Of a DNA stretch of 64,000 nt, positions 191-36,141 are shown in pieces; within the stretch, counting starts at the first letter, position 1; each line of letters opens with the position of its first letter. A program made the position numbers and the translations under genes. The DNA is from Escherichia coli (GTDB lineage Bacteria > Pseudomonadota > Gammaproteobacteria > Enterobacterales > Enterobacteriaceae), in NCBI RefSeq assembly GCF_001677475.2, contig NZ_CP015229.1, one strand, 5' to 3'. A model generated the notes under the pieces. The model was not told the origin of the DNA. It saw nothing but the letters and a program-made list of their open reading frames with translations, and searched no databases.

Positions 191-216
191 TTTATTAATC
201 AAAAGGAAATTTAATA

Positions 217-2222: not shown

Positions 2223-2296
2223 TACTTTAGGTTGAAAAAAAAACAGCGTCAATAGATCTGCCTGCTACGAAGCGAGATCTGTGAAGCGCTTTCCGG

Positions 2297-3730: not shown

Positions 3731-3777
3731 TCCTGTCTCCTGAGAGATTCAAAATTTGCGCGCGATAATATCACACT

Positions 3778-6618: not shown

Positions 6619-6640
6619 TAGCGATTTTATCCTTGCCTGA

Positions 6641-7942: not shown

Positions 7943-8183
7943 AGCCTTTACTTATCGGTTATGTCACATAAGTGACGATGAACGGCGAACTTAATGCGAT
8001 CTTTTTTGTCAGTAGATAGTATTTTGCGCCAAATTGCCATGCAACGGGCAATTTGACGGGCGTAAAAGTTTGAAGCAGTGGCAAGACCTGACACAGAGGA
8101 TTCCGATTGATGTCGAATGCTTTGCGTAGCGACACTGATGCCACTACTATCGTTCCACTTTCCATGACAATAACGACAGCCTG

Positions 8184-8804
8184 ATGCCAAAATTACGCCT
8201 GATCGGATTAACTTTACTCGCACTTAGCGCCACTGCCGTCTCACACGCTGAAGAAACGCGCTATGTTTCTGATGAACTGAATACCTGGGTCCGTAGCGGT
8301 CCGGGAGATCATTATCGCCTCGTGGGCACGGTTAACGCCGGCGAGGAAGTGACCTTATTACAAACTGACGCCAACACCAATTATGCCCAGGTGAAAGACA
8401 GCTCTGGCCGTACCGCCTGGATCCCGTTGAAACAACTTAGCACAGAGCCAAGCCTGCGCTCCCGTGTGCCAGATCTGGAAAATCAGGTCAAAACCCTGAC
8501 CGATAAGCTCACCAATATCGATAACACCTGGAATCAGCGCACCGCAGAAATGCAGCAAAAAGTGGCGCAGAGCGACAGCGTGATCAACGGGTTAAAAGAA
8601 GAAAATCAGAAACTGAAAAACGAGCTGATTGTCGCGCAGAAAAAGGTCGATGCCGCCAGCGTACAGCTGGATGACAAACAGCGCACCATCATCATGCAGT
8701 GGTTTATGTATGGCGGCGGCGTGCTGGGGCTTGGCTTGCTGCTCGGTCTGGTACTGCCGCACCTGATCCCAAGCCGCAAACGCAAAGATCGCTGGATGAA
8801 CTAA
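8184..8804 (+). CDS. ygiM: SH3-domain protein with signal peptide and C-terminal TM anchor
   Basis: 206-aa ORF; N-terminal signal-like segment and hydrophobic C-terminus. Confidence 0.85.
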   Translation: MPKLRLIGLTLLALSATAVSHAEETRYVSDELNTWVRSGPGDHYRLVGTVNAGEEVTLLQTDANTNYAQVKDSSGRTAWIPLKQLSTEPSLRSRVPDLENQVKTLTDKLTNIDNTWNQRTAEMQQKVAQSDSVINGLKEENQKLKNELIVAQKKVDAASVQLDDKQRTIIMQWFMYGGGVLGLGLLLGLVLPHLIPSRKRKDRWMN

Positions 8805-8867
8805 ATCGCCTTCTTCGTTGCACTGTCTTATTATTAGGAATTGTGTATTTGACGAAGGGATGATGGC

Positions 8868-10106
8868 GTGAAGATTTATCTGGTCGGTGGTGCTGTTCGG
8901 GATGCATTGTTAGGGCTACCGGTCAAAGACAGAGATTGGGTGGTGGTCGGCAGTACGCCACAGGAGATGCTCGACGCGGGCTACCAGCAGGTAGGCCGCG
9001 ATTTTCCTGTTTTTCTGCATCCGCAAACGCATGAAGAGTATGCGCTGGCACGTACTGAACGGAAATCCGGTTCCGGTTACACCGGTTTTACCTGCTATGC
9101 CGCACCGGATGTCACGCTGGAAGATGATCTTAAGCGTCGCGATCTGACCATTAATGCGCTGGCCCAGGACGATAACGGCGAGATTATCGACCCGTACAAC
9201 GGTCTGGGCGATCTGCAAAATCGTCTGTTGCGCCATGTTTCCCCCGCTTTTGGCGAAGATCCGTTACGCGTATTGCGCGTGGCGCGTTTTGCTGCGCGTT
9301 ATGCCCACCTCGGTTTTCGTATTGCCGATGAAACTCTGGCACTGATGCGCGAGATGACCCATGCGGGTGAACTGGAACACCTGACGCCTGAACGGGTATG
9401 GAAAGAGACGGAAAGCGCCCTCACCACCCGCAATCCCCAAGTCTTCTTCCAGGTACTGCGCGATTGTGGTGCACTGCGCGTTTTATTCCCGGAAATTGAC
9501 GCCCTGTTTGGCGTTCCGGCCCCTGCCAAGTGGCATCCGGAAATCGACACGGGTATTCATACCTTAATGACGCTCTCAATGGCGGCGATGCTGAGTCCGC
9601 AGGTCGATGTCCGTTTCGCAACGCTATGCCACGATCTCGGTAAAGGACTGACGCCGCCAGAACTTTGGCCGCGTCATCATGGTCATGGCCCGGCGGGTGT
9701 TAAGTTAGTGGAACAACTCTGCCAGCGTCTGCGTGTGCCAAATGAAATTCGCGATTTAGCCAGACTGGTGGCTGAGTTTCACGATCTCATCCACACCTTC
9801 CCAATGCTGAACCCAAAAACCATCGTCAAATTATTTGATTCCATCGATGCCTGGCGTAAACCGCAGCGTGTCGAGCAACTGGCGCTGACCAGCGAGGCTG
9901 ACGTGCGCGGCAGAACCGGTTTTGAATCGGCGGACTACCCGCAAGGCCGCTGGTTGCGCGAAGCCTGGGAAGTGGCACAGTCAGTGCCGACAAAAGCCGT
10001 CGTTGAAGCGGGATTTAAAGGTGTGGAGATTCGCGAAGAGCTGACCCGACGGAGGATTGCGGCGGTAGCCAGCTGGAAGGAACAACGTTGCCCAAAGCCT
10101 GATTAA
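8868..10106 (+). CDS. cca: tRNA nucleotidyltransferase (CCA-adding enzyme) with HD domain
   Basis: 412-aa ORF from a GTG start, [12 protein letters not shown]...; HD motif (HDLGK) in C-terminal half. Confidence 0.9.
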
Positions 10107-22475: not shown

Positions 22476-22551
22476 GGCCCCTTAGCTCAGTGGTTAGAGC
22501 AGGCGACTCATAATCGCTTGGTCGCTGGTTCAAGTCCAGCAGGGGCCACCA
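22476..22551 (+). tRNA. ileX: tRNA-Ile (anticodon CAU, lysidine-modified)
   Basis: 76-nt sequence ggccccttagctcagtggttagagcaggcgactCATaatcgc...gggccacca folds as a canonical cloverleaf with CAT anticodon and encoded CCA; its 3' 46 nt are repeated at 36093-36141. Confidence 0.92.
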
Positions 22552-22554
22552 GAT
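22506..22554 (+). repeat. attL core (3' part of ileX plus 3 nt)
   Basis: Exact 49-bp identity with 36093-36141, read directly from the sequence. Confidence 0.85.
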
Positions 22555-22593
22555 TTCAATGAATTACAGATGTATCCAAACTATCTTGCTTTA

Positions 22594-22627
22594 CCAGGAT
22601 ACTTATAGGATACCTCTGAGAAGTATT
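22594..22627 (+). promoter_or_regulatory. Arm-type repeat near attL (AGGATAC motifs; candidate integrase/accessory-factor binding site)
   Basis: ccaggatacttataggatacctctgagaagtatt closely matches 35964-35997 near attR (29 of 34 positions). Confidence 0.45.
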
Positions 22628-22765
22628 AACAAGTAAGAATTGGCTCATGCCTACAGAACAGTTGGGTCGTAGCAGCCGTTCACCTGCGAACAAGAAAGTG
22701 CTACGGGTCTGAACTTTTGCCCCCAACTCTCCAAGAGACCGGCAAAAACCCTGACGGAGGTATCA

Positions 22766-22909
22766 ATGGATACTTTAAGAAAGGGCTCAGACCTGCTGTC
22801 TGCACGTGTGATTGCCGTTACAGGTTTAATCGCAGCACTTGGCAATTTAGGTCTATGCCCAATAGCCGTAGTGCTAGTATGTATAGCTTTAGTTATCATG
22901 CTGAAGTAA
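22766..22909 (+). CDS. 47-aa small hydrophobic membrane peptide (MDTLRKGSDLLSARVIAVTGLIAALGNLGLCPIAVVLVCIALVIMLK)
   Basis: Strong SD (ggagg) 6 nt upstream of ATG; followed by hairpin gcccagctttcgctgggc; a single predicted TM helix. Too short to be in the ORF track. Confidence 0.5.
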   Translation: MDTLRKGSDLLSARVIAVTGLIAALGNLGLCPIAVVLVCIALVIMLK

Positions 22910-23356
22910 TGACAGCGTAACAAGCTCGGCCCAGCTTTCGCTGGGCCTCCCATTTCTACCTCCCAAAATCTATTAGAAACAATAAGCCACTAAAGAAAGA
23001 GCTTTTGCTGGCTACAATACTCACATACAAACAATTTTTATTTTTCGCGGGCGTAAAAAAACGATGGGGCTGGCAGTCCGGAAGACGTCAGGGTACAGAG
23101 ATTTGTACCCGCCTCTCCCTGTGCATGAGCACAATAAGTAACCGAAGGCGGAATTCCGCCCTCGGTACTCACATATGAGAAACGATATTTCTTCCACCGA
23201 TACCCTTTATTTGGGTATCGCGAGTAAGCCCCAAAATCTGGGTGTTACTCTTACTACCCAAACTACGGGTAGTTTCCGTAGTTTCATGGTCGAGTTGCAG
23301 ATCTGCAACTCACCCACCAGCCAACGCAATTTTGCGTTATCGGGAATATCAGCAAG

Positions 23357-23641
23357 TTACCGCCGCAGTCGTTCCGGCTTCTTCCACTGGTAAGTATTTT
23401 TCGCGCTCTCCCTCCGTTGTTGAGAACGGCGACGGTATGCCAGCAACTCAAGGACTCTGATCCGTATGTCGCGCATATCCACGCCGTTAAGCTCGATACC
23501 GTCACGGCGCATCATCTCTGCCACCACACGCGCGTAATTTTCGGCTATCACGCTGTCCGGCTGCGTGGCCTCCTATTTGCTTGATGGTTGTTTGATTCCG
23601 GTAACGCGGCGGATTAATCCCAGCAATTCAGATTCTGTCAT
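23357..23641 (-). pseudogene. Amber-interrupted ORF downstream of terS (remnant of a packaging-module gene)
   Basis: MTESELLGLIRRVTGIKQPSSK, then in-frame TAG, then the 64-aa ORF 23357..23551 in the same frame; start overlaps terS stop. Confidence 0.35.
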
Positions 23642-23652
23642 AGTGCGCTACG

Positions 23653-23973
23653 TTACTTGTCTTTATTCGGCTGCAACTTATCCGGCACATTTCCGGTAGT
23701 TTCCATCAGGTAATCAGCCAGTATCTGTGGGAGGTTGTCGGCAACTCTGGCACTGGCATTACAGGCTTTAACCACTTCCCTTTTAAGCCCATCCAGCATA
23801 GCGGGGGTAATGTGTGGGAAGCTCCTTTGCATAGTAAGCGGGAGGCTGTCCATGATTGATGAAATCTGACTCGCCAGTTTTGAAAGCGCGTACATGCAAA
23901 ACTCTGTATCAATCACGTCACCGCGATCGCGCTCGTTTTTAAGTTCCTGCGCCTCCGCCTGTGCTGTCAGTAA
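23653..23973 (-). pseudogene. Small terminase subunit (lambda Nu1-like), C-terminal fragment separated from its N-terminus by the IS insertion
   Basis: Translation ...AQAEAQELKNERDRGDVIDTEFCMYALSKLASQISSIMDSLPLTMQRSFP... parallels lambda Nu1 C-terminal region (...AQADAQELKNARD...ETAFCTFVLSRIAGEIASILDGLPLSVQRRFP...) from memory. Confidence 0.7.
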
Positions 23974-24085
23974 TCTGATCCTGACTCGTAAGTATGAGAC
24001 GACAATAACTCAGTCCGCCTGGCGCCGATTATTCTGGCCGGTTTTGTAACCTGAGTGTCATTTACATGATCCAACAGGAAATGGC

Positions 24086-25465
24086 GTGACGCTCAATACT
24101 TCTCAGGTCAGTTACTATATGACTCAGCGTAAGAAAGGTATAACTCAGCATATCTCGGCCATGAAGGCTGGTATCTCAGTCCGTTCTGGTCGTCGGATCG
24201 AAAAAGGAGAGTGGGCAAAAAACAGTGTTCGGCACTGGCGCACACGCAAAGATCCTCTGGAAGCTGTGTGGGACAGCATGCTTGTTCCTCTGTTGAAAGA
24301 GAGGCCGGCTCTGACACCAACAACTCTACTGGAGATGCTACAGGATAAATATCCCGGCCAGTACCCCAACAGCCTTCGAAGAACAATGCAACGGCGGGTT
24401 CGCGAATGGAAACTACAGTATGGTACAGAGCAGGAGGTCATGTTCCGCCAGCAACATCAGCCCGGCCTGCGAGGCCTGTCGGACTTTACTGAACTGAAAG
24501 GTGTAGTTGTCACCATCGCCGGTAAGTTGTTGGCGCATAAGTTGTATCACTTCCGTCTGGAATGGAGCCACTGGAGCTGGATGCGGGTTGTTCTGGGTGG
24601 TGAGAGCTTCTCTGCTCTGGCTGAAGGCCTGCAGGAAGCCCTCGGACAACTGGGCGGAGTGCCGGTAGAACATAAAACGGACAGCCTGAGGGCAGCATGG
24701 AAACAACAGGGCGAAGATGGACGCCGCGAGCTGACTGAGCGTTATGCTACTCTCTGTCAGCACTACGGAATGCAGGGCGTACACAATAATGCCGGTCGGG
24801 GCCACGAAAATGGCTCGGTTGAAAGTGCCCACGGACATCTGAAAAGGCGTATCTGTCAGGCGCTGATACTGCGGGGCAGTAACGACTTCAGCACCATAGA
24901 AGAATATCAGGCCTTCATCACTCAGCAGGTTATGCGGCACAACCGTAACAATCAGGATCTGGTCAAGGAAGAACGTCTTCATCTGAAACCGCTGCCGCTT
25001 CGTCGCAGTGCTGACTATGATGAGCTGACTGTGAGGGTTAGTCGCAGCAGTACCATCAATGTGAAGCACGTCGTCTACAGCGTACCTTCCCGGCTTGTAG
25101 GTCAACTGTTACGGGTCAGGTTATGGGACGATCGTCTGAGCTGTTACGTTGGCAGCAGCGAGGTCATGAGCTGCCCTCGCGTCAGACCAGAAAAAGGGAA
25201 GACGCGGGCCCGTCGTATCGACTTCCGACATGTGATCGACAGTCTGGCAAAAAAGCCCGGTGCGTTCTGCCATGCAACGCTGAGAAATGACATCCTGCCG
25301 GACGATGAATGGCGGAGGCTGTGGCGTCGCTTATGTAATCATCTGGAGCCCGATATGGCAGGAAGGCTGATGGTACATGCCGGGAAACGTGGATCTGCAC
25401 CGGCTGATGCGCTTCCTGGGTATAAAAGAAAAGGCGTTGCCGGTAGTCAATGTGATACAGCATAA
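24086..25465 (+). CDS. istA: IS21-family transposase IstA
   Basis: 459-aa ORF (GTG start) with N-terminal HTH and DDE-type catalytic region; sits immediately upstream of an IstB-like gene. Confidence 0.8.
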   Translation: MTLNTSQVSYYMTQRKKGITQHISAMKAGISVRSGRRIEKGEWAKNSVRHWRTRKDPLEAVWDSMLVPLLKERPALTPTTLLEMLQDKYPGQYPNSLRRTMQRRVREWKLQYGTEQEVMFRQQHQPGLRGLSDFTELKGVVVTIAGKLLAHKLYHFRLEWSHWSWMRVVLGGESFSALAEGLQEALGQLGGVPVEHKTDSLRAAWKQQGEDGRRELTERYATLCQHYGMQGVHNNAGRGHENGSVESAHGHLKRRICQALILRGSNDFSTIEEYQAFITQQVMRHNRNNQDLVKEERLHLKPLPLRRSADYDELTVRVSRSSTINVKHVVYSVPSRLVGQLLRVRLWDDRLSCYVGSSEVMSCPRVRPEKGKTRARRIDFRHVIDSLAKKPGAFCHATLRNDILPDDEWRRLWRRLCNHLEPDMAGRLMVHAGKRGSAPADALPGYKRKGVAGSQCDTA

Positions 25466-25510
25466 CCTGAGCAGTTATGAGCAACTACTGCGTGGCAAGG
25501 GAGGTTCGCA

Positions 25511-26266
25511 GTGAGCAATATCCATCACCTTGAACATAGCCTGCGTAAACTACGCCTGACACGAGTTGGAGCTGAATGGCACGCTCTGGAAAAACGAGCG
25601 CTGGCAGAAGGCTGGACACCATCGCGCTATCTTCTGACGCTATGCAATGAAGAACTCCTGTGGCGCGAGAGTGAAAAACTGCGTCGTTATAAAAAGGAGG
25701 CCCGGTTGCCAGTTGCCAAAACGCTGAGCGAATACGACTTCAGTCAGGTGCCGGAACTGAATGGAGCTCAGTTCCGGCAACTCTGTGAAACGACAGACTG
25801 GGTTGATGCAGGAGAAAACGTTCTGCTGTTCGGAGCCAGCGGGTTGGGGAAAAGCCATCTGGCGGCAGCGATCGTGGATGGCGTAGTAGGTCAGGGCTAC
25901 CGGGCCCGGTTCTACAGCGCAGGAGAGCTGTTGCAGGAACTACGTAAAGCCAGAGCTCAGTTGAAACTGAATGAGCTGCTACTGAAACTGGATCGCTACC
26001 GGGTGATAGTGGTGGATGATCTTGGCTATGTCAAACGCGATAGTGCCGAAACGGGTGTGCTGTTCGAGTTAATAGCGCATCGCTATGAACGTGGGAGCCT
26101 GGTGATAACCAGTAACCATCCGTTCAGCATGTGGGGCAGCATCTTCGTGGATGAGACTATGGCGGTGGCTGCGGCAGACAGGCTGATCCATCACGGATAT
26201 ATGTTCGAACTGAAAGGGGAAAGCTACAGGAAAAAGACAGCGAAGGCAGTAACAAGCGCGACTTGA
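25511..26266 (+). CDS. istB: IS21-family helper ATPase IstB
   Basis: 251-aa ORF with Walker A (GASGLGKSHLA) and Walker B (VIVVDDLGY) motifs; RBS gggagg upstream of GTG start. Confidence 0.85.
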   Translation: MSNIHHLEHSLRKLRLTRVGAEWHALEKRALAEGWTPSRYLLTLCNEELLWRESEKLRRYKKEARLPVAKTLSEYDFSQVPELNGAQFRQLCETTDWVDAGENVLLFGASGLGKSHLAAAIVDGVVGQGYRARFYSAGELLQELRKARAQLKLNELLLKLDRYRVIVVDDLGYVKRDSAETGVLFELIAHRYERGSLVITSNHPFSMWGSIFVDETMAVAAADRLIHHGYMFELKGESYRKKTAKAVTSAT

Positions 26267-26325
26267 TGTCGCCCTGAAGGGTGCGGCCAGTATAGTTGGC
26301 GCGAGTCGGCAAAACTAGTTGACGT

Positions 26326-26526
26326 CTAATATCGTAAGAGTTCATCATCATCAATCTCGCCTTTGTCGTTTGTAAGCTGGCTAATTGCATTGTTAACCCT
26401 ATTGTCTATCACGCTGGCAACATCATAAAACGCCTCACGGCCTTTACGTTCAACGGGAGTCACTCCCCACTTGTCGAATGCTGTAGCACTTACCCGGCAG
26501 CTTTGCGCCATGGTTTTTTTGTTCAT
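26326..26526 (-). pseudogene. Small terminase subunit (lambda Nu1-like), N-terminal fragment truncated at the IS boundary
   Basis: MNKKTMAQSCRVSATAFDKWGVTPVERKGREAFYDVASVIDN... parallels lambda Nu1 N-terminus (MEVNKKQLADIFGASIRTIQNWQEQGMPV...); ORF ends exactly at the IS junction. Confidence 0.7.
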
Positions 26527-26639
26527 CAGGTGCGATTTCATCAATATCCCAACTTGGTCAAGGTTTCAGGTTGGTGTGTTGGTGTTATCTTTCCCTTTTT
26601 ATTCATGGAGATAGAGCAAACAACAAAACCACCACCACC

Positions 26640-26745
26640 CCCCTGAAAAAGCTCATAAATAGCGAAAAACCGCGAGGTCGCCGCCCCGTAACGGGTCCAT
26701 ATGCCGGAAAGGACCCGTAAAAAAAGCCGGATTTCTCCGGCCTTG
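26640..26745 (-). other. Lambda-type cos site (cosN with flanking terminase-binding region)
   Basis: Minus strand reads ACGGGTCCTTTCCGG...CGTTACG-GGGCGGCGACCT-CGCGGTTTTTCGCTATTTATGA, nearly identical to the phage lambda cohesive-end region as I recall it (GGGCGGCGACCTCGCGGGTTTTCGCTATTTATGAAAA); lies ~150 nt upstream of the Nu1-like start. Confidence 0.75.
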
Positions 26746-26747
26746 TC

Positions 26748-27161
26748 TCAGATGGTTTTCAGTATGCGATCGATGTCGCCATCATCGCCCGGGTTTCTGC
26801 CAGCGTATGCCATACCAGCTGATACGGCTTTCGGGCTGTGCATGTCCATAAAGTTTTCAAAGGCTGCGGTAAGCTCTGGTGCAACCTTCTGGCGTTCCTG
26901 CTCTATGGTCATGCTAAGGATGCTTTTAGCCGTACCAACATCGATACAAGGCACGTTTGCCATTGCACGTAACAGCGGCTGATAGTCGCCAGATTCATCA
27001 AGCGCCATAATCGCATCAGAGCGCGGCTTGTCCTTCTCTTCCAGGCTGTTAAGTTGATATACGGCCTCGTAGGTTGATAAACCTCTGTCAGCCATTGCCC
27101 GCGCTTCGGCCTTAAATTTACTCGCCAGCGGTAGCGTCATGATGCTTTCATTCGTTGCCAT
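26748..27161 (-). CDS. Hypothetical protein (137 aa) between decoration-like gene and cos
   Basis: ORF with no motif I recognise; co-oriented with capsid genes. Confidence 0.55.
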   Translation of the reverse strand: MATNESIMTLPLASKFKAEARAMADRGLSTYEAVYQLNSLEEKDKPRSDAIMALDESGDYQPLLRAMANVPCIDVGTAKSILSMTIEQERQKVAPELTAAFENFMDMHSPKAVSAGMAYAGRNPGDDGDIDRILKTI

Positions 27162-27173
27162 CGTTCCCTCTGC

Positions 27174-27509
27174 TTATCGGGCCAGTGGCTGAACGGATAC
27201 GCCAGAACCCGCAAAGGCGGCGCATTTTTTCGCATCGGTGTCGACGCTCTCAGGCCAGTTAACGGCGGCGATATTAAATATCCCCGTCTTATAGCACTGT
27301 GCTGATTTCTGCGTCGACGTGTCAACGGGGTACGAGGTCAGATAAACAGCCTTGCCAGATTCCTGACCATCCCACGGCTTAAACTCGCCATTTTCCGCCA
27401 GCATCAGCGGGGTAAATTCCTGAATAACTCCAGCATCAGCGGCAAAATGTACCAGCGTCGTGGATACCTGCTGACTGCCTGCAAATAACTCAATGTATGG
27501 AGTGTTCAT
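27174..27509 (-). CDS. Head decoration protein (lambda gpD-like)
   Basis: 111-aa ORF, size and position next to an E-like capsid gene match lambda D (110 aa); assignment by context and size, weak sequence recall. Confidence 0.6.
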   Translation of the reverse strand: MNTPYIELFAGSQQVSTTLVHFAADAGVIQEFTPLMLAENGEFKPWDGQESGKAVYLTSYPVDTSTQKSAQCYKTGIFNIAAVNWPESVDTDAKKCAAFAGSGVSVQPLAR

Positions 27510-27520
27510 AGAATCCCCCG

Positions 27521-28576
27521 TTAAGCAATTTTGACGGTAACAAATTTGCGAATATCTGCCGGTACCGGCTGCGGTGCGCTGTGCGTCTGCACGTACTCAA
27601 TCGCCGGATCGCCATCCTCAATCCAGTTTTTCGGGTAGTACATGTTTTGCGTTGCGCCAGTTCTTACCGCTTCCGGATCCATAATCGCACCATAGGCCAC
27701 CAGCCCTTTATTGTTAGTGTTGCCCAGGACAAGCAAATCAGGCTCAAGGAAATATTTTTCGGTGCCATCGCTGTCGGTGTATTTGCCGGAATAGACGATA
27801 AGGGCCAGATCACCCAGATAGCCTTTAAAGCTCACCACTTCGCCCAGGTTTTTACAGGCCAGCTCTGCGGCGGATTCTGAACCACGGGAAAGATCGTACA
27901 GTTCACGGAATTTTTTAAAGCTGCGTAACGTGCGCCATACCTCAGCGCCCATAATCATGACGTTGGCGGGGCAACCAGCCTGATCGGTGTATAGTTCGAT
28001 GTCATAGATTGGATCGTGTGTTTCCTTATCTGCCTCAGACCACTTTTTGCCCGATCCCTGCGTAATGATGTTTTTAGTCGGGATTTTCCAGTCGATTTCG
28101 TATCTATTTATTCCTTCGCCCTCAATGATGTTTTTTCCGGTCGTGACCGCATTCACCGCCAGCCATTCTATGCGAGCTTTAATAGCGTTTACCTGGCGGC
28201 GCATGTTGCCAGTAATCAGGCGCATACGGCGATAAGTTGGATCGTTAAGCTGTGCCGGATCTTCTCCAGCCATGCGCATGATGGTTTTTGATGGATCGAT
28301 TTCGTGTTTTGGTTTCATATAGCCAGGGCGGATAGTGCTTGTTTCGTACCCTTTATCGCGCTGAACCTGACTCCCCACCATAGGCGAACAAAAAGCCGAC
28401 ATGGTGACTTCTTCAATATCCAGGGTATCTAACATGATGTCCTGCGTGTTGAAGGTTGCCACGTTCGGGAAAAACAGCGACGTAAACAGCGGACTGAATT
28501 TAAATTCCGAAATATCCCCACGATTCAGGTACGCGAAAAGCTGGTTAGTGTTAAGTGCCGTTGCTTTGCCTGTCAT
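27521..28576 (-). CDS. Major capsid protein (lambda gpE-like)
   Basis: 351-aa ORF aligning along its length with lambda E from memory: FKFSPLFTSLFF / FKFDPLFLRLFF, PGYMKPKHEIDP / PGYVKPKHEVNP, YSGKY...LVLGNTNN...YPKNW / YSGQY...MVLGNTQA...YPKNW. Confidence 0.8.
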   Translation of the reverse strand: MTGKATALNTNQLFAYLNRGDISEFKFSPLFTSLFFPNVATFNTQDIMLDTLDIEEVTMSAFCSPMVGSQVQRDKGYETSTIRPGYMKPKHEIDPSKTIMRMAGEDPAQLNDPTYRRMRLITGNMRRQVNAIKARIEWLAVNAVTTGKNIIEGEGINRYEIDWKIPTKNIITQGSGKKWSEADKETHDPIYDIELYTDQAGCPANVMIMGAEVWRTLRSFKKFRELYDLSRGSESAAELACKNLGEVVSFKGYLGDLALIVYSGKYTDSDGTEKYFLEPDLLVLGNTNNKGLVAYGAIMDPEAVRTGATQNMYYPKNWIEDGDPAIEYVQTHSAPQPVPADIRKFVTVKIA

Positions 28577-28815
28577 TATTCACCCCCATGAGTCTGATTC
28601 ATGCCCAGCGCCGCGCGTAAATAGGCGCGTACCTGCCAGCCTGTTGACGGCTCAACCATCGCCAGCGGCTCAAGTCCTGCCGCAATGCCTGCTTTTACGT
28701 TCTGCTGGTGGCGTTCCTTGAGCGCCTCCACGATGTCTGGGCTTATGTAAACTGTCACCCCGCCTTTTTTCTCTTCTGCCATAGTCGGAAATTCCTCTTT
28801 GACGTTAAAAATCAC
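28576..28815 (-). CDS. Hypothetical small protein translationally coupled to the capsid gene
   Basis: 79-aa ORF (possibly starting at internal MAEEKK); stop shares one base with the capsid ATG. Confidence 0.5.
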   Translation of the reverse strand: MIFNVKEEFPTMAEEKKGGVTVYISPDIVEALKERHQQNVKAGIAAGLEPLAMVEPSTGWQVRAYLRAALGMNQTHGGE

Positions 28816-28846
28816 AACTGGATGTTCATCCAGTTGTGATTATAAT
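28811..28846. promoter_or_regulatory. Perfect 14-bp inverted repeat plus TATAAT box upstream of the capsid operon
   Basis: atcacaactggatg-tt-catccagttgtgat immediately followed by tataat; read directly. Confidence 0.45.
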
Positions 28847-28951
28847 CATGATTTCATTTTACGCAATAATGTTGAGTTGTGTTGCAAATTGTGAAATGAT
28901 TTCCGGCAACAGTAGTCACCATACTGTTAGATAAAAGCCTCATATGCAAAA

Positions 28952-29028
28952 GCCCGATAAGACCCTCTGACCTTATCGGGCTTTTTTTGGGGCATAAAAA
29001 AGCCGGACTTCTCCGGCTTCTGTTACTC
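28952..29028. terminator. Pair of intrinsic terminator hairpins between the SSB gene and the capsid operon
   Basis: gcccgataag...cttatcgggc followed by T-run; and gccggacttctccggc flanked by A-run / T-run (functional on minus strand). Confidence 0.55.
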
Positions 29029-29033
29029 GTTGC

Positions 29034-29456
29034 TTAAAACGGTATGTTATCCCCGTACGGATCATCGTTACCCGCCTGTTGTTTTGCCCTGTTCAGTGCG
29101 TCAGTAGCCTGCCCTTGCTGGCCTTTTTTGCCGCCCGGTCGCGCCGTTCTCGCACTGATTACGCTGTCTGCGATAACCTGCCAGCCCTGCCGCGTTTCGC
29201 CGTTCTGGCCTGTCCACTGGCTTACCTGCATGTTACCCGCCACGCTCACCAGTTCGCCTTTGTGGTGTTTTGCCAGTGCGTCGGCCTGTCTGCCAAACGC
29301 CAGGACGGATAACCACATCGTCGCCGTTCCGTCATCTGCCTGGCTGCACGGAAGGGGGACCGCCATACTAGCCATCGTCATTTGTGTACCCTTGCTGGTG
29401 GTCTTTAACTGCGGGTCAGCCACCAGCCGCCCGTAAGCCGCTATCTGTGCTGTCAT
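29034..29456 (-). CDS. Single-stranded DNA-binding protein (island-encoded SSB)
   Basis: 140-aa ORF; Gly/Gln-rich linker and acidic C-terminal tip ...DDPYGDNIPF resembling the SSB C-terminal DDDIPF motif. Confidence 0.75.
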   Translation of the reverse strand: MTAQIAAYGRLVADPQLKTTSKGTQMTMASMAVPLPCSQADDGTATMWLSVLAFGRQADALAKHHKGELVSVAGNMQVSQWTGQNGETRQGWQVIADSVISARTARPGGKKGQQGQATDALNRAKQQAGNDDPYGDNIPF

Positions 29457-29698
29457 GCTGTCTGCTCTCCGGTTTTAACGTTGATGGTTGTCACCTGTTC
29501 CGCTTCGGCAATCTCCCGTTCTGTCAGCGTGGCAAAGTTTGCAGCTGCCGTTGTCATGAATGCGCTAATCAGTTCGGGATGTGCTTTCGCATATCCTTCC
29601 CCGGCGTTGCGGTCGATGATTTTTATCGACACCCTTAACCAGTGTTCCGTCAAATCAAGGGCGTGCGATTGTGATTTTTTTGTGTGCTTCGCTGTCAT
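29453..29698 (-). CDS. Hypothetical protein (81 aa), coupled to ssb by ATGA overlap
   Basis: ORF directly downstream of the iteron array; no recognised domain. Confidence 0.5.
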   Translation of the reverse strand: MTAKHTKKSQSHALDLTEHWLRVSIKIIDRNAGEGYAKAHPELISAFMTTAAANFATLTEREIAEAEQVTTINVKTGEQTA

Positions 29699-29742
29699 AG
29701 GCTTTATCTCACAGCAGTAAATTAAAATTTTTGCGTTTTAAC

Positions 29743-29971
29743 CCTTCACCTGTTCACCTTTTGATATTTTCCATTTAAATTCATACTGTTAAGGGGTGAA
29801 CAGTTTCACAAAAACTATTCACCAACTGTTCACCACTGTTCACCCTTGAAGCTCAATAAACAACCAAAAAGGTGAACAGTGAATAGTTTGGTGAATAGTT
29901 CATAAATAACTGTTCACCCTATAATATACTGATATAAAAGATATTTATGACAGGGTGAACAGTGGTGAACA
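29743..29971. repeat. Iteron array (P4 ori/crr-type TGTTCACC octamers)
   Basis: Perfect TGTTCACC at 29751, 29827, 29837, 29911 and its complement GGTGAACA at 29795, 29871, 29954, 29964, plus degenerate copies (tattcacc, ggtgaata), within ~230 bp immediately 3' of the primase gene. Confidence 0.8.
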
Positions 29972-29985
29972 GTTATTCCATAAGT

Positions 29986-31803
29986 TTAATTTTTGCTATC
30001 GTCATTAGTGACTGATACACATGATGGCATCCAGTCTTCTGATTCCTCCGTCAGTGTCACGTTTGAACGTAAACCGTGCTTCGTTTTCCGTTTTATATAC
30101 TCCCTGCCATATTCCGCCATTGCCCCAGGCATATCTTTACCGAAGCGCGTCAGTGTTACAGGTTTACCAAACCCATGAGCCCTCATATAAGCCAGATAGG
30201 CATGATAGAGATACCTGCGCGGGCTGAATGGCACAATTTCAGCATTACCCACTAACAGGCCATCACACATTACCGACGCCATGAGATAGCCGCAGAAGTC
30301 CACCAGCGAATCCCCCTCTCGCTTTATCGCCAGTGCTTCTTCAGATTTCTGCTGCTCATATAACAGGCGTCTGGCTTCGTCCTGGTCAGCAAACCTTGTA
30401 AGCAGATGGCGAATCACTACCGCCAGCTCACCTTCTATTTTTTCCGCCAGCATCGGATCGCGTTCGTTCTCCGGTACAACTTCCGAAAAATTGAATATCA
30501 CCCGACGACGTGAGATCCCCCCGCTGCGGTCACTGAATGACATGGCGTTATTGTTAACCGCCAGCACTACTGCCGGAATACGCGTTGAGTAGGGGGCTTT
30601 GTGTTTCGGGTCAATTGCCACCTTGTCACCGCCTGTAATGGCCTTAATTCCTGCCCCATCACCAGCGTAGCGGGTCATATCCGGCATGATAATCAGCGAA
30701 AAGCCAACCACTAACGCGCGTTCCCTTGCATCTTCCAGCGCCTTCATGCTTGCCGATACTGTGTTGGCCTTACCCGCCAGCATGGTGCAAATCTCCGCCA
30801 TCACGCTTTTACCACTTCCCCCTGGACCTGTTACCTCAATGAATAACTGCCAGTCGTACCGGTTCGCCAGCACCATGAATAATGCAGCCAGTACGCGATC
30901 CGCCTTGCGGTCATTCTCAGCCACCGAACGGCGTAACCACTTCCAGAAATTCGGCGCATGTGTTGCCAGCGTTTCCCCCTCTGCTGGTGGGCTGAAAGGT
31001 AATTCACTGGCAATTAACAACCAGTCGTTTTTGTTATGCTCCCGAAAATTACCTGTTCTGGTATCAAATACCCCGTTACTGAATCCAATCAGGTTACGGG
31101 CTGTATTCCCCATTACAGGCAAACTTAACTTCATGGTATCGACCGCCGATTTAATGGCGTTCTGCGAATAGCTGATCTCCGCATCAATGAAAATCTGCGC
31201 CATAGCACGCTGTAACTCTTTATCCTGAACCGGCTCCCATACAACGCCGTTGTAATGGTGAACAGTGTCAGAGTCAGCATGAATCGCCAGTTCACCGCCA
31301 TAATGTGCCAGGAGAACTTCGCCGCGTTGACTTGCTCCCATCTGGTTAAGCGCCAGTGATGAAGCGTTATCGTCTTTTACCCGCTCTTTTTTCTTTACAG
31401 GCAGTTCAACTACCTTTTTCTTTTCCGCCAGCTCTGCCCGTTCACGTTCCAGATATTCGCGCCAGTTCTCCCGTTTCTGGCTGTGCATTCCTTCAGGATA
31501 ATAATCAGCATCCCTGACACCTGCCGCTGCCAGTTTCTGCCCGATGGTATTAACAAGCCCCGGACGCAATAACCCCGCCTGGTAGAGACGCACACGATAG
31601 CGTCCGTCCGGTACGATTTGCAGGTTGTCCAGTTCGGCAAGTTGTTGCTCTCCAAGCCAGACAGGAGGCACGTTATCGCCAGCCAGTCGCCCGTCCTGTT
31701 CCTGCCACTGCTTCGCATGTGCCCACGCATCACTACCCGCAAAAATGATGACTTCCGTCATTTTGTCACGTGGCTGGTGTTTTAAATTTGGCGCTTTTTT
31801 CAT
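29986..31803 (-). CDS. Satellite replication protein (P4 alpha-like primase-helicase, D5-type NTPase)
   Basis: 605-aa ORF (likely start MKKAP with ATGA overlap to upstream gene); Walker A GPGGSGKS; adjacent to TGTTCACC iterons. Confidence 0.75.
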   Translation of the reverse strand: MKKAPNLKHQPRDKMTEVIIFAGSDAWAHAKQWQEQDGRLAGDNVPPVWLGEQQLAELDNLQIVPDGRYRVRLYQAGLLRPGLVNTIGQKLAAAGVRDADYYPEGMHSQKRENWREYLERERAELAEKKKVVELPVKKKERVKDDNASSLALNQMGASQRGEVLLAHYGGELAIHADSDTVHHYNGVVWEPVQDKELQRAMAQIFIDAEISYSQNAIKSAVDTMKLSLPVMGNTARNLIGFSNGVFDTRTGNFREHNKNDWLLIASELPFSPPAEGETLATHAPNFWKWLRRSVAENDRKADRVLAALFMVLANRYDWQLFIEVTGPGGSGKSVMAEICTMLAGKANTVSASMKALEDARERALVVGFSLIIMPDMTRYAGDGAGIKAITGGDKVAIDPKHKAPYSTRIPAVVLAVNNNAMSFSDRSGGISRRRVIFNFSEVVPENERDPMLAEKIEGELAVVIRHLLTRFADQDEARRLLYEQQKSEEALAIKREGDSLVDFCGYLMASVMCDGLLVGNAEIVPFSPRRYLYHAYLAYMRAHGFGKPVTLTRFGKDMPGAMAEYGREYIKRKTKHGLRSNVTLTEESEDWMPSCVSVTNDDSKN

Positions 31804-32099
31804 TTCTGCTCTCTCCACGCGGCAATCATGTTTTTCAGTTCCTGTAGTTTTTTATCAACATCCATACATGACACATGGTTATTTCTGGAAGGCGGGATTT
31901 CCCGCCGGAATCTGCAAATAAAGATCTCCACGTTCAGCGAGCTATGAAATGAATAGCCATCACGAATAAAATACACACGGTCAAACATTATCGATTTTAC
32001 TGTTACTCTGTTGCCGTTCTTATCCCGATAAATAGCGCCGGGGATAATTTTGGGATGTGCATAACCGCTGGCAGTCAAGCCAGATAAATACGTTCTCAT
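31800..32099 (-). CDS. Hypothetical protein (99 aa)
   Basis: ORF translationally coupled to the primase gene; no recognised domain. Confidence 0.5.
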   Translation of the reverse strand: MRTYLSGLTASGYAHPKIIPGAIYRDKNGNRVTVKSIMFDRVYFIRDGYSFHSSLNVEIFICRFRREIPPSRNNHVSCMDVDKKLQELKNMIAAWREQK

Positions 32100-32105
32100 G
32101 ATTAT

Positions 32106-32426
32106 TTATCCCCGATTTGAATCAGTATTCGCTTTCTTTATGGCATTTAATGCATCTGTGGCATTTTCAATGGTGCACCGTAACGAAATATCAAAATGTC
32201 CAAGCATTGCCAGTAACAAACCGATATTACCCATATCAATGCGCATGGCCTTTTCGTCATAGTCCTCATTTTCTGACGCATGCCACATCAGGCTACCAAT
32301 TGACGCAACGGCCATTGATATATTGTCAGTCGCCCCATCCGCAGCGGAATAAACCTTTTTAGCAATATCATGCTCACAGTTAAAATGCGGATTAATCAGG
32401 TACTGGTAATTTGACATATCAGGCAT
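32106..32426 (-). CDS. Hypothetical protein (106 aa)
   Basis: ORF upstream of the 99-aa gene; lower GC than flanking island DNA. Confidence 0.5.
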   Translation of the reverse strand: MPDMSNYQYLINPHFNCEHDIAKKVYSAADGATDNISMAVASIGSLMWHASENEDYDEKAMRIDMGNIGLLLAMLGHFDISLRCTIENATDALNAIKKANTDSNRG

Positions 32427-32622
32427 GGCACACCCCCTGACGAATACGGGCGGCGAATACCATCACGCAGCCAGCCGGGGAGTGCTGGCGTGCTTCCTGT
32501 TCGCTGGTGGCCACGATGGTAATCACACGCGGTTTTGCGGCGCTCAGGGCGATAAAACGCCAGGCGAATTTATTCAGGTTGTGCGAATCCCGCCCTTGCG
32601 GGTGTATGGTATGATTTCTCAT
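32419..32622 (-). CDS. Small protein, possibly Icd-like (host cell-division inhibitor family of P4-like elements)
   Basis: 67-aa ORF MRNHTIHPQGRDSHNLNKFAWRFIALSAAKPRVITIVATSEQEARQHSPAGCVMVFAARIRQGVCHA; the family assignment is from memory of similar annotations and is tentative. The 334-aa ORF in the track is an upstream stop-free extension that looks non-coding. Confidence 0.45.
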   Translation of the reverse strand: MRNHTIHPQGRDSHNLNKFAWRFIALSAAKPRVITIVATSEQEARQHSPAGCVMVFAARIRQGVCHA

Positions 32623-32717
32623 AGCTACCTCGATACTCTCGTTATCGTTGGTGGTTAGAAGCCCTGCGAGTGGTAACGACACTTGCGGGGCTTTGTTTTT
32701 TGTTGCACTTACTGTTA

Positions 32718-32763
32718 ATGTACGTACGTAATATTGATGATAATAGGAGTTACGTACGTACAT
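32718..32763. promoter_or_regulatory. Twin palindromic operator (two copies of TACGTACGTA, 30 bp apart) in a divergent promoter region
   Basis: atgtacgtacgtaat at 32718-32732 and gttacgtacgtacat at 32749-32763; second copy overlaps the start codon of the RHH-like gene. Confidence 0.55.
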
Positions 32764-32953
32764 GTCAACATTAAAGCGGGATAAATCACCACGCGGCGAG
32801 GGATGGTCGCCGACATTCCAGATACGAATTAGCAAAGAACTACGCCAGCAAGTAAACGAGGCAGCAACCGCCGATGGCCTAACCCTCGGCAATTGGTTTA
32901 AAGAATTAGCTCGTGCCGAACTAAAGCGACGCGGCATTGAACCTAAAGGCTGA
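32762..32953 (+). CDS. Small DNA-binding protein, probable ribbon-helix-helix fold
   Basis: 63-aa ORF; TFQIRISKELRQQVNEAA... resembles a beta-strand plus helix RHH pattern; two short basic ORFs follow at 32957-33082 and 33138-33317. Confidence 0.5.
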   Translation: MSTLKRDKSPRGEGWSPTFQIRISKELRQQVNEAATADGLTLGNWFKELARAELKRRGIEPKG

Positions 32954-33429
32954 TGTATGACTGAAAAGCAGACCGATAACAAACTTTCTCTACCAGAGAA
33001 TAAACCAGCAGGCTTCTTACCAAGAAAAATCCTTGATGAGATCAAACGCCGCCAGCGGCGCAAGGCCAAAGAGCAGGAGTAACCATCACCAGCGCCGTGG
33101 TGCGGTGAACTGTGGCGCACAGGGTTACAGGTATCTACGATGACTGACAAATCATTAAAGAAATTATCCTCATCCAAGAAAAAACAACGCAAAAATGCGG
33201 TAAACGAACATGAACCGGAGAGATTCGCACCATGTGCGTTTATCCTTGAGAAGTACCTTAAAGAGTATTCTAGGAAAATACGCTCATTGCAGGCATGGCA
33301 GCGAATCGAGCCAGACTGATAGCATTGCCCACCAGCCAACAACCTGGTATTCTGGATATGCTCAAGTTTAGTGTTATGCCACTGGCGGCCCTCTGCGGTC
33401 GCCTTTGTTTTATGTGCCATCACTCCCCC

Positions 33430-33648
33430 TTACACCGTCTGCGTTCTGCGAGTGGATGCAAGATAAGCATCGAGATCAGTGCGCATATACAGCACTTTGC
33501 GCCCCAGCTTATGGAAAGGGATTTTTACCTTGCCAGTACAGGCCCAGTTCGCCAGCGTTTGATTGTTAACGCCAAGGTAGGCAGCAGCTTCAGCACGTGT
33601 AAGGCGGTCAGTTGATAAATCAGATTTCTTTAAATTCATATCTATCAC
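33430..33648 (-). CDS. alpA: AlpA/excisionase-family HTH regulator
   Basis: 72-aa ORF with LTRAEAAAYLGVNNQTLANWACTGKVKIPFHKLGRKVLY (MerR-like HTH_17 pattern). Confidence 0.75.
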   Translation of the reverse strand: MIDMNLKKSDLSTDRLTRAEAAAYLGVNNQTLANWACTGKVKIPFHKLGRKVLYMRTDLDAYLASTRRTQTV

Positions 33649-33709
33649 CGTGTACTTCTAAGTAACAACGGTGATAAATATCAATCAATGGGTATTTTGT
33701 TTTTAGCCC

Positions 33710-33786
33710 AATAGCCAGTTGCTGTGGGGAGGTTACCAGTTATTTAGCCTTAATAGCCAGCTATTAAGATACACTAGCCAGCTATT
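33710..33786. promoter_or_regulatory. Three TAGCCAG-containing operator-like repeats upstream of alpA
   Basis: aatagccagttgc (33710), aatagccagctatt (33752), ctagccagctattg (33773); plus inverted repeat atcaccgtg...cacggtgat at 33651-33682. Confidence 0.45.
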
Positions 33787-34507
33787 GGGGGTGAACAAGT
33801 TCAAACGAAGAATATTTATCAGGTCTTGGTGGTTGTGCTCCTGATTCTTTAATCCATTTATCCAGAGTGTTTTTACTTACTTTCCCATGATAGTAAACAG
33901 AAAGCTCGTTCAATAAACCTGTTTTACTGGCTTTAGGGTACTTTTCCCATGTTAGTTTAATTACGTGCATAACTTCATTGTAATAATGATTTCTTGGTTT
34001 GCGCGCTTTTTCTTTCTGTGATAAGGATAAAGCATCTTTTATTTTTTTATCTTTTTCATGGTTCGATATAATTTCTTCAAAAAAGTCATTAAGCAATAAC
34101 TCAACACCAACCCTAGTAAGTTTGTCTGCGTGATTACGCATTCCGACATGGTACAATGCAACTGCTGAATTTAAAGTATCGACAACCTGACAAGATAGTT
34201 TACTATCAAATATTAAAAAACCACATGAATCCATTCTTATAGCTAATTCAATAGGATATTGCTCGATTTCTCTTAATTCTAAACCATAACACAAAAGAAA
34301 TTCTCTTGTTGGATACTTTGATTTATAAAAATAATCTCTTATATCATCAATCAAGCGTTTTATAGCCTCTATGGTGGAGTTTTTCGGGGATAAAGATACA
34401 GGAACGTTTAAAACTGAAGAGTCTCGCCCACCAGTAATTAAATCATTCATAACCGAATAAATAATATATTGTTTGACCGATATATTGTTATCACCCATAT
34501 ATGTCAT
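33782..34507 (-). CDS. AT-rich orphan protein (241 aa) in the integrase-proximal cargo position
   Basis: Long ORF with visibly lower GC than the rest of the island; overlaps the int stop; no motif I can recognise. Confidence 0.6.
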   Translation of the reverse strand: MTYMGDNNISVKQYIIYSVMNDLITGGRDSSVLNVPVSLSPKNSTIEAIKRLIDDIRDYFYKSKYPTREFLLCYGLELREIEQYPIELAIRMDSCGFLIFDSKLSCQVVDTLNSAVALYHVGMRNHADKLTRVGVELLLNDFFEEIISNHEKDKKIKDALSLSQKEKARKPRNHYYNEVMHVIKLTWEKYPKASKTGLLNELSVYYHGKVSKNTLDKWIKESGAQPPRPDKYSSFELVHPQ

Positions 34508-35912
34508 TCTTTTCTTGTACTATAGCAAATAGTAAACGACGTTTTTCATCATCACTCATGCCCTCCAGTGCGGAAAGTAATTGCGCATCGATAGATTTTT
34601 TACTCTCCACCAGCCCGGCATGTTCCAGAATTGCCCGTTCTATCCGTGATGCTGGCTCCAGCAGTTCATCAGCACCGAAATGTAAATACCCCTGCGTTAC
34701 GTCGGCACTTCGCATAGTGCGGTGATTCATCAGGCGCTTGAGGATGTAATTACCCACGCCCACCAGCTCAGCAACCGTTCCGAACGTCCGGCGTGCGTCG
34801 TGCCACTTAAACGGGACAGGGAAGAGCATTTCATCGTTCGCCTCAGGAATGGTAGCCGCGCTTATCCGGTCTATGATGTGCCGTGTCTCCTGAATCACTC
34901 CCTTCACGCCAGGAAACACCAGCACATCATCAGCAGCTTTGTTTTTTAGCCTGCGAAGAAACATTTTCCGCAACGTATCAGTGATCGGCAGTTCAAGCGG
35001 ATCCCCGTTTTTCGTGGTGTCTATCCAGAAAAAGCGACCGCCCATATTCACGCGATCCCACGTAAGGCCAAAAACTTCTGATTTCCTCAGTCCGGTAAAC
35101 AGTGCCATTTCCACGGCATCACATACCGTAACAGCTATATCATCCCTTTCCTGTTCGCCCTGGTCGCGCACAGCAGCTACAGCAGCAAACCAGCGGGGAA
35201 AATCATGCAGGCGGATACGTTCCGTTTTTCTTACCGTTCCGTGCCACTGGCGCTTGGTGCTCAGTACCAGAGTCGGCGGATCCGGTAAAAGAGTATTACC
35301 CGCATCATCACGGTAATGATCATGCGCAAACCGACACACAGCACGTAGCGCACGCGCCCATAAATCGGCCTGTGCCTTGCTTCCTGTACCAACCCCAGCC
35401 CGTAACGTGGTTTTATCAGCACCGAACCATACAGCCCCATCAGTGATGGCCTTATGCCGTTGTTCCACCCGTTCGCGGGAAATACTGGCGAGGGTATGGG
35501 CCATCCAGTCACCGGAATAATTCTGTAATATGCTGCGGTACTGTTTTTCTGTGGAGGGTTTCAGGCGGTGGCCACGATTTTTTACGTAGGCGTCAATCGC
35601 CTCACTCAGCGTTATCATGGCCTTGTTGTTAGTGCGCTTTGCTATGTTCGGATTTATCCCCGTTGTGGCGACTTCGCCAAGGAGTTCCATAGCTTTAGCC
35701 CTGGCATTATCCACGCTCAGATCAGGAAAACGCCCCAGCGTTGCACGAATAAATTTTCCGTTACGCTTACGGGAAATGCAGAAACTTTTCACACCAGACG
35801 AACCTACACGGACACGCAGCCCGTTAACCTCCGTATCACCATATTCGACCTGTCCATGTTCCGGCGTTGGCAGTTCTGCAATTTTTACTTTAGAGAATCT
35901 GAATAATTTCAC
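34491..35912 (-). CDS. int: Tyrosine site-specific integrase
   Basis: 473-aa ORF from a GTG start; catalytic signature region (LRKSE..., WHDARRTFGT, ...QGYLHF) with an N-terminal arm-binding-like domain. Confidence 0.85.
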   Translation of the reverse strand: MKLFRFSKVKIAELPTPEHGQVEYGDTEVNGLRVRVGSSGVKSFCISRKRNGKFIRATLGRFPDLSVDNARAKAMELLGEVATTGINPNIAKRTNNKAMITLSEAIDAYVKNRGHRLKPSTEKQYRSILQNYSGDWMAHTLASISRERVEQRHKAITDGAVWFGADKTTLRAGVGTGSKAQADLWARALRAVCRFAHDHYRDDAGNTLLPDPPTLVLSTKRQWHGTVRKTERIRLHDFPRWFAAVAAVRDQGEQERDDIAVTVCDAVEMALFTGLRKSEVFGLTWDRVNMGGRFFWIDTTKNGDPLELPITDTLRKMFLRRLKNKAADDVLVFPGVKGVIQETRHIIDRISAATIPEANDEMLFPVPFKWHDARRTFGTVAELVGVGNYILKRLMNHRTMRSADVTQGYLHFGADELLEPASRIERAILEHAGLVESKKSIDAQLLSALEGMSDDEKRRLLFAIVQEKNDIYG

Positions 35913-35935
35913 TCATACACCCCACCAAGCGATCT

Positions 35936-35997
35936 GGTATCCTGGAAAATCGCTTGTTCTGCTCCAGGATACCTATAGGATACCGTAAAGAAGTATT
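35936..35997 (+). promoter_or_regulatory. Arm-type repeats near attR, directly upstream of the integrase start
   Basis: ggtatcctgg / ccaggatacc inverted pair plus tandem GGATACC copies and the block shared with 22594-22627. Confidence 0.45.
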
Positions 35998-36092
35998 TTG
36001 GGGTATATACAGGTATTTATACAGTAGTTTTAAAAAATGCTAAGGTATTGAAAAGTATCGCTAAGTATCTGTAAGTAAAGGGTTATCAACCA

Positions 36093-36141
36093 ACTCATAA
36101 TCGCTTGGTCGCTGGTTCAAGTCCAGCAGGGGCCACCAGAT
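36093..36141 (+). repeat. attR core (displaced partial copy of tRNA-Ile 3' end)
   Basis: 49-bp exact copy of 22506-22554; upstream sequence is not tRNA-like, so this is not a functional tRNA. Confidence 0.85.

Follow-up and report, generated by a model that had tools for sequence, protein, structure and literature searches.

The stretch analysed here, 64,000 nt of the chromosome of Escherichia coli (contig NZ_CP015229.1 of assembly GCF_001677475.2, referred to as the window), carries a 13.5 kb insertion (22552-36106, an IS21-type insertion counted in) whose layout is that of a Gram-negative phage-inducible chromosomal island (PICI). On its minus strand, the gene for a 473-aa tyrosine integrase (int, 34491..35912) is followed by a gene of an uncharacterised family, here called X (33782..34498), and by a 72-aa alpA-type gene (33430..33648), a helix-turn-helix (HTH) gene of the HTH_17/excisionase-transcriptional regulator type and the presumed target of regulation. 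At the junction of X and alpA lies an array of four direct repeats, TANCTGGYWA, in exact 21-bp phasing (33712..33784, minus strand), which is a putative operator for X. In an earlier note on this DNA, X was put forward as an orphan gene in a variable cargo slot and as a candidate anti-phage or helper-interference factor. We found that X represents a fixed, undescribed, integrase-coupled, two-domain core-gene family of one PICI subgroup.

Gene X and its family

In RefSeq/PGAP and in all homologues, X starts at 34498 (MGDNN...) and has 238 aa; an ATG three codons upstream, at 34507, would give 241 aa. The overlap with the int stop amounts to 8 nt (ATGGGTGA), or 17 nt with the upstream ATG, and X is probably translationally coupled to int. 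The G+C content (GC) of the gene is 0.33, that of int 0.51. When determined in 400-nt windows, GC of the X region was 0.315-0.34 versus 0.45-0.55 on either side, the minimum of the 20 kb profiled. The AT-rich 241-aa open reading frame described in the earlier note between int and alpA is thus real, and so is its overlap with the int stop. Nothing significant was found for X in Pfam, NCBIfam, PADLOC, or PDB sequences; the first reading had assigned no motif either. The Pfam, NCBIfam, and PADLOC searches gave no significant match for the single sequence or for 68 family members, PADLOC-DB 2.0 returned 0 families at E<=1, and the PDB sequence-profile search gave chance matches alone. By tblastn, 50,697 phage genomes yielded no homologue, and plasmids a single weak match. 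Literature searches revealed no description of any gene between int and alpA, and a survey of PICIs assigns Int and AlpA/HTH_17 only to the 'integration zone', with X unmentioned (PMC10111431). No gene of the island is less understood than X, and the expectation of an undescribed function at this position was well founded.

Exhaustive HMMER searches identified 85 representative clusters (50% identity) from Enterobacterales that share the basic C-terminal ~80 residues of X, 57 of them at E<=1e-10; most matches spanned residues ~100-238 of the query only. A Foldseek search of AFDB50 with the predicted structure, the remote-homology check proposed at the outset, retrieved solely family members named 'Uncharacterized protein' from Escherichia, Salmonella, Yersinia, Serratia, Erwinia, Pectobacterium, Hafnia, Proteus, Klebsiella, and relatives. 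A search with the N-terminal domain alone found the window allele in two clusters and one fragment among 5.8 billion sequences. The term orphan therefore applies to the N-terminal half and not to the whole protein, the C-terminal domain of which is common to 85 clusters.

The order int, X, alpA (HTH_17 or Phage_AlpA) was observed in 16/16 loci from E. coli, Salmonella, Serratia, Superficieibacter, and metagenomes, even where X was only ~21-30% identical. Called X starts overlapped the int stop by 1-19 nt, abutted it, or followed after a 3-nt gap; the start was uncalled for the two loci that were the whole yield of a genome-collection scan with the C-domain alignment. The integrase of the window (>=94% DNA identity) was present in 86 of 5426 complete E. 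coli genomes, and in a DNA search ~80 of these 86 had one of three X alleles, namely that of the window (23 genomes), a second of 228 aa (54-58 genomes), or a third of 206 aa (2-3 genomes). A fourth allele of 266 aa was found in locus L023, and all four E. coli alleles fall in the X family. X occurs together with two integrase types that differ in length and Pfam domain content. The variable cargo slot assumed in the earlier note was not recovered; the comparison of homologous islands, which it had proposed as a check, revealed X as a conserved core gene of the island family, an outcome it had counted, together with a lack of phenotype against phages, against a defence role.

GC of X was 0.33-0.40 versus 0.49-0.57 for the neighbouring int in 16/16 loci, one from Serratia (window, L003, L006-L009, L011-L014, L016, L018, L020, and L022-L024). 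Low GC is a trait of the whole family and is therefore uninformative on recent acquisition; it is no mark of recent foreign cargo. The AT-richness of X holds whatever the host or the neighbouring genes, and H-NS targeting, DNA curvature, or amino acid composition are possible causes.

The experimentally studied island EcCICFT073 is without X and has a 365-bp gap between int and alpA, an AlpA of a different type, and an int of another type; X can therefore not be universal. Two or three satellite islands were found in tandem on the same side of nfeF in E. coli 90-9280 (L002, 1-16263) and in strain A36 (NZ_CP028739; L001, 4126-16263). There, X is present in the int-proximal island only, and in the next island alpA comes straight after int. 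Tandem islands may be controlled independently of one another through their different regulatory modules.

AlphaFold2 modelling with the family alignment yielded an all-helical structure (predicted local distance difference test score, 91.9; predicted template modelling score, 0.76) consisting of a helical bundle (residues 8-117), a 46-residue helix (121-166), a three-helix bundle (173-219), and an ordered extended tail. The N-terminal domain (residues ~1-118; 34145..34498, minus strand, as for the following parts) is an acidic, hypervariable helical bundle. It is followed by the long central helix (34001..34144), in the model a possible oligomerisation element, and by a basic C-terminal domain (33782..34000) that comprises the winged-helix-like bundle 173-219 and a conserved PPxPxKYxxFxLVxP tail and is putatively DNA-binding. 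In the family alignment, the conserved C-terminal block reads ASKPRNxxYxExxxIxKxTWxKYPxASK...GKVSxxTLxxWIKxxxLxPPxPxKYxxFxLVxP, and the N-terminal halves barely align; averaged over sequence pairs, identity reached 0.40 in the C part and 0.15 in the N part. The C-domain was basic in 68/68 sequences (median isoelectric point 9.8, minimum 9.2), the N-domain acidic (median 4.8). Weak matches of the C-domain were obtained to PHROG 2345 'transcriptional regulator' (E=0.03) and to the N-terminal HTH region of an ISNCY transposase (E=0.028), and four family members gave weak matches to Pfam HTH_32. The N-terminal HTH of IS3/ISNCY transposases (Pfam HTH_32, HTH_Tnp_Tc3_2) is the only recurrent, weak, resemblance of the C-domain in sequence or fold; E-values are at or above significance thresholds, and X is without a transposase catalytic domain. 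Together with the basic charge, the weak HTH matches are consistent with a DNA-binding C-domain, without amounting to proof.

The two halves of X clearly evolve under different regimes. When the window allele was compared with that of strain 90-9280 (96.7% identical), 2 nonsynonymous and 10 synonymous changes were counted in the C-terminal half, giving a ratio of nonsynonymous to synonymous polymorphism (pN/pS) of 0.05 versus 0.08 for int, whereas the N-domain differed by 9 nonsynonymous and 1 synonymous changes, small counts in both cases.

Phased repeats and the protein they track

The four sites of the array are located at 33775-33784, 33754-33763, 33733-33742, and 33712-33721 (minus strand). 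The first repeat, TAGCTGGCTA, opens with the three bases of the X stop codon TAG and is followed 21, 42, and 63 bp further by TAGCTGGCTA, TAACTGGTAA, and CAACTGGCTA, a spacing of exactly two helical turns. The degenerate 10-mer occurs 8 times in the 64 kb versus 2.8 expected, three of them inside a 52-bp stretch at this position, and the triple-phased pattern was unique to the position between X and alpA in each of the seven loci having it. In the six loci with an array of the window type, the CTGG cores were invariant (0/16 columns variable), and variable columns numbered 3/40 in the sites versus 9/33 in the spacers (Fisher p=0.03). An A-rich stretch lies downstream of the window array. A consensus promoter scan upstream of alpA identified no sigma-70 site; the sole plausible weak alpA promoter, read from the sequence, is TTGATT-18-TACTTA, and the array lies wholly upstream of it.

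Arrays of other sequence were found at the corresponding position of other loci. L003 and L023 have AAWCCAGAT in three direct and one inverted copy (20/18 bp), and L018 from Salmonella has a related A(A/T)C(C/T)AGATA set. CCAGGG/CCCTGG is present at 21/19 bp in L006 and L024, TTACCCGGWTA at 21/23 bp in L012 from Serratia, and TAGCATGCTA at 21 bp in L011 from Superficieibacter, where the array likewise begins on the stop codon. Fewer or no clear repeats were observed in 5/14 loci.

Binding of Int to arm sites was rejected as the source of the repeats. Int is excluded because near-identical int genes (>=94% DNA identity) are accompanied by unlike arrays and because a different motif, AGGATAC(C/T), clusters at the ends of the island. 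The latter forms 11-bp-spaced pairs ~45-60 bp inside attL (22596-22614) and three copies ~120-170 bp inside attR (35936-35984), is unlike the X-associated repeats, and probably represents the arm-type sites of the integrase.

AlpA was excluded as the determinant of repeat specificity, as L003, L023, L006, and L024 have the same AlpA helix-turn-helix and two unrelated arrays. L011 has a window-like AlpA, yet CATG cores in place of CTGG, and L003 and L018 have a common AACCAGATA core at 60% identity of the X C-domain and ~69% identity of AlpA. Among 44 locus pairs with AlpA >=75% identical, the mean number of shared heptamers was 29.6 where the C-domains were >=55% identical versus 2.5 where identity was lower. 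Rank correlations with operator similarity were inseparable for the C-domain (rho 0.40) and AlpA (rho 0.39), and the stratified comparison alone separates the two. Like other proteins of the AlpA/Vis/TorI type (Phage_AlpA, HTH_17), the neighbouring gene product binds DNA and is part of the PICI 'integration zone' (PMC10111431); X is unrelated to these proteins in sequence and size.

The N-domain of X was also rejected as array determinant. Three N types (window/P0002; P0003/4/8; P0009/10) and two C types occurred in six of six combinations, all with one array, and X of L023 is a new N-domain on the C-domain and array of L003. No other protein in the module varied with the repeats. As judged by these sequence comparisons, the repeats co-vary with the C-domain of X, and not with AlpA, Int, or the X N-domain. 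A caveat arises from the position of the DNA coding for the C-domain, which abuts the array, so that linkage contributes to the co-variation. The argument connecting repeats and C-domain is drawn from co-variation, conservation of cores over spacers, and phasing jointly.

A putative switch at alpA

Induction of Gram-negative PICIs depends on AlpA, an activator and excision factor that sets the cycle going and activates its own promoter; helper phages activate alpA transcription, with the phage inducer unidentified and a global repressor 'unclear' (PMC6092414). We consider it about an even chance (probability around 0.5) that X is a modular sequence-specific DNA-binding regulator of the island induction switch at alpA. 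X would be co-transcribed and probably translationally coupled with int and would therefore be made while the island is quiescent. The winged-helix-like C-domain would bind the four phased TANCTGGYWA sites, and the long central helix would probably oligomerise X, with cooperative filling of sites on one face of the DNA. Bound X would most likely silence alpA, either as a barrier to int-X read-through or by occluding the weak alpA promoter, or both. The hypervariable acidic N-domain would act as a sensor, to which a helper-phage protein would bind and thereby release repression in a Stl-like logic. DNA binding by X, the sign of regulation, and helper sensing by the N-domain are elements that we infer, and repression appears roughly twice as probable as activation. 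It is favoured because X is coupled to a constitutively needed gene, because the first site can block read-through, and because of the Stl-like build.

The Stl/Rpr master repressors of Gram-positive PICIs (staphylococcal SaPIs) resemble X in that they are satellite-encoded beside int and co-oriented with it, combine a conserved DNA-binding domain with a highly divergent one, and are located at the control point of excision/replication genes. The divergent domain of Stl binds helper-phage proteins (PMC6092414). No sequence similarity between X and Stl/Rpr was detected (no HTH_3/XRE match in Pfam or NCBIfam, no PDB sequence match). X further differs in the reversed domain order, with the DNA-binding domain C-terminal, in being co-directional with its presumed target and not divergent, in having an activator gene as that target, and in being known from sequence alone.

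A wider proposal is rather doubtful. In a large Gram-negative PICI subgroup, X might be both the sensor of helper phages that has been missing and the master regulator, acting by Stl-like derepression and belonging to an unrelated, new family; alleles of C-domain and operator would then be 'immunity types' that put tandem islands under separate control, and alleles of the shuffled N-domain would specify the helper phages able to induce the island. If true, N-domain alleles would predict helper range, which governs the spread of satellite virulence, capsid, and defence genes. The X family is a concrete candidate for the helper-triggered alpA switch in one widespread island subgroup of Enterobacterales, and with a clear domain boundary and three N-domains combined with two C-domains it offers a natural allele series.

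The same sites could serve activation in place of repression. OmpR/PhoB-type winged-helix activators bind direct repeats upstream of weak promoters, and X might likewise bind head-to-tail to the direct repeats and turn alpA on upon a helper-phage signal to the N-domain. This version is quite possible because the sites are upstream direct repeats, all of them before the only plausible weak alpA promoter, and because a strong promoter went undetected; the null result of the promoter scan fits activator dependence, and activation of alpA transcription by helper phages is known (PMC6092414). We nevertheless hold it to be unlikely: coupling to int presumably means that X is already there in the quiescent state, the first site, on the X stop codon, is well placed against read-through, some alleles have inverted copies of the site, and AlpA already activates its own promoter in EcCICFT073 (PMC6092414).

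Excision is another process that X might control in place of transcription. The P2 C repressor, P2 Cox, 186 Apl, and lambda Xis are small HTH/winged-helix proteins that act on direct repeats phased by about two turns in a lysogeny/lysis or excision switch, and phased direct-repeat arrays are typical of Xis/Cox-type proteins. X is like them in its four sites at exactly 21 bp. As an accessory of site-specific recombination, either an integrase cofactor or a Cox/Apl/Xis-like directionality factor, X would have an appropriate array; the gene moves together with the int module, begins over or right at the int stop, and is missing from EcCICFT073, where int is of another type. The array is, however, ~2.3 kb away from the att core, and the likely Int arm sites are different ones (the AGGATAC pairs at 22596-22614 and 35936-35984). 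Int DNA that is >=94% identical is found with different X and repeats, X occurs with two integrase types, and AlpA already belongs to the excisionase family. No homology to proteins of the P2/P4 system was found, and X is much larger, with an extra variable domain and the long helix. A role in recombination is thus considered improbable.

The defence reading of the earlier note, in which X is anti-phage or helper-interference cargo of an integrase-proximal hotspot that acts directly on infection, fits the satellite-borne location near int that X has in common with genes of P4-like defence hotspots and PICI accessory genes. It also fits the extreme variability and nonsynonymous excess of the N-domain, the rarity of its window allele, and the absence of X homologues from 50,697 phage genomes. 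Defence hotspots hold unrelated interchangeable systems, whereas the slot of X is always filled by one family in fixed order, with its start at the int stop. The search with a defence-system finder, which had been proposed as a check, matched no model, low GC is a family trait, X is without an enzymatic or effector domain, and a conserved basic HTH-like domain with cognate repeats adjoining alpA points elsewhere. Genes resembling cargo do occur in sister islands, coding for a HEPN-domain protein (L002 3372-4085), a pP_pnuc_1/2 protein (L007 9294-10139), and a KAP-family nucleoside triphosphatase (L008 5660-7242); they are placed downstream of the replication module and not between int and alpA. 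With no positive evidence beyond N-domain variability, direct defence has only a slight chance of being correct, and an AT-rich unknown gene beside an integrase is not necessarily defence cargo. What may remain of the proposed link to helper phages is the hypervariable N-domain, which could sense the helper in the induction switch.

Least probable of all is that the repeats are iterons bound by X as a replication/maintenance protein, or are bound by another factor with X unrelated. Direct repeats in 21-22-bp phasing to which winged-helix proteins bind are a hallmark of iteron origins, and the 21-bp phasing and the A-rich stretch after the array would fit. Against this, a primase-helicase and an SSB are encoded on the island itself, inverted or single sites occur in some alleles, the X model has one HTH-like domain in place of the two winged helices of Rep initiators, no other module protein varies with the repeats, and the PICI origin lies downstream of pri (PMC10111431).

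The alpA leader and the island

An inverted repeat with a predicted hairpin, ATCACCGT-N16-ACGGTGAT, extends from before alpA into its start (33634..33685, minus strand). Its 3' arm covers a GGTGA Shine-Dalgarno-like sequence, and the stem, which can be lengthened to 14 pairs, has a predicted energy of -21.9 kcal/mol. A hairpin was found at the same position in L003, L007, L008, L009, L011, L012, L018, L020, and L024, with loops of 12 to 23 nt. The arms compensate between loci (CCTCACCGT/ACGGTGAGG, ACCCCGTTAC/GTAACGGGGT, GTAACTCCG/CGGAGTTAC), and G-U pairs occur in L007. In a simple alignment, 76.7% of cells pair versus <=44% with shifted partners, and in four pairs both members have changed. 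An Rfam scan of the island matched the tRNA alone, and no family was assigned to the alpA leader. Speculatively, read-through transcripts from int-X would fold back and hide the alpA ribosome-binding site, and transcripts started in the loop would be translatable; fold-back inhibition in IS10 is a precedent for a hidden ribosome-binding site in read-through transcripts. Alternatively, the inverted repeat may serve as an operator for a protein that binds around the -10 region.

The insertion is flanked upstream by rpoD, mug, and a tRNA(CAT) gene, and downstream by nfeF, nfeR, aer, and ygjG (RefSeq names). The tRNA(CAT) gene (22476..22551, plus strand) is taken as ileX (Ile2) from its flanking genes and has attL at its 3' end; attR is an exact 32-nt copy of this 3' end (36107..36138, plus strand). 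On the minus strand, alpA is followed by genes for an Icd-like and a DUF4222 protein, a P4-alpha-like primase, SSB, a lambda-E-type major capsid protein, and a head decoration protein, a content that parallels EcCICFT073. As is characteristic of Gram-negative PICIs, int, the alpA-type regulator, and the primase are co-oriented, the att repeats are specific, and the size is small; an att site unused by prophages and the absence of tail and lysis genes also belong to the definition.

An IS21-type element (istA, 459 aa; istB, 251 aa) is located at 24086-26266 (plus strand) in the late, capsid-proximal part of the island, and the adjoining region up to attL (22552-24085) contains no convincing long open reading frame. 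The packaging end of this island copy is probably degraded. A 334-aa, GTG-initiated open reading frame at 32419-33423 (minus strand) overlaps small alpA-proximal genes on both strands, is without a RefSeq counterpart in an identical region, and is almost certainly spurious. On the opposite strand, the interval that separates alpA from the icd-like/primase operon contains a small gene of the Arc/ribbon-helix-helix type (32762-32953, plus; YlcI/YnfO family in RefSeq) beside a 41-aa open reading frame (32957-33082, plus). The small gene is also present in EcCICFT073 and is a candidate for a second island repressor. The spacer between int and alpA of EcCICFT073 (L026 24161-24525) is dense in short repeats of the ACAAC/GACACAA type, in one cluster just after int and another just before alpA; control there may have been solved in a different way.
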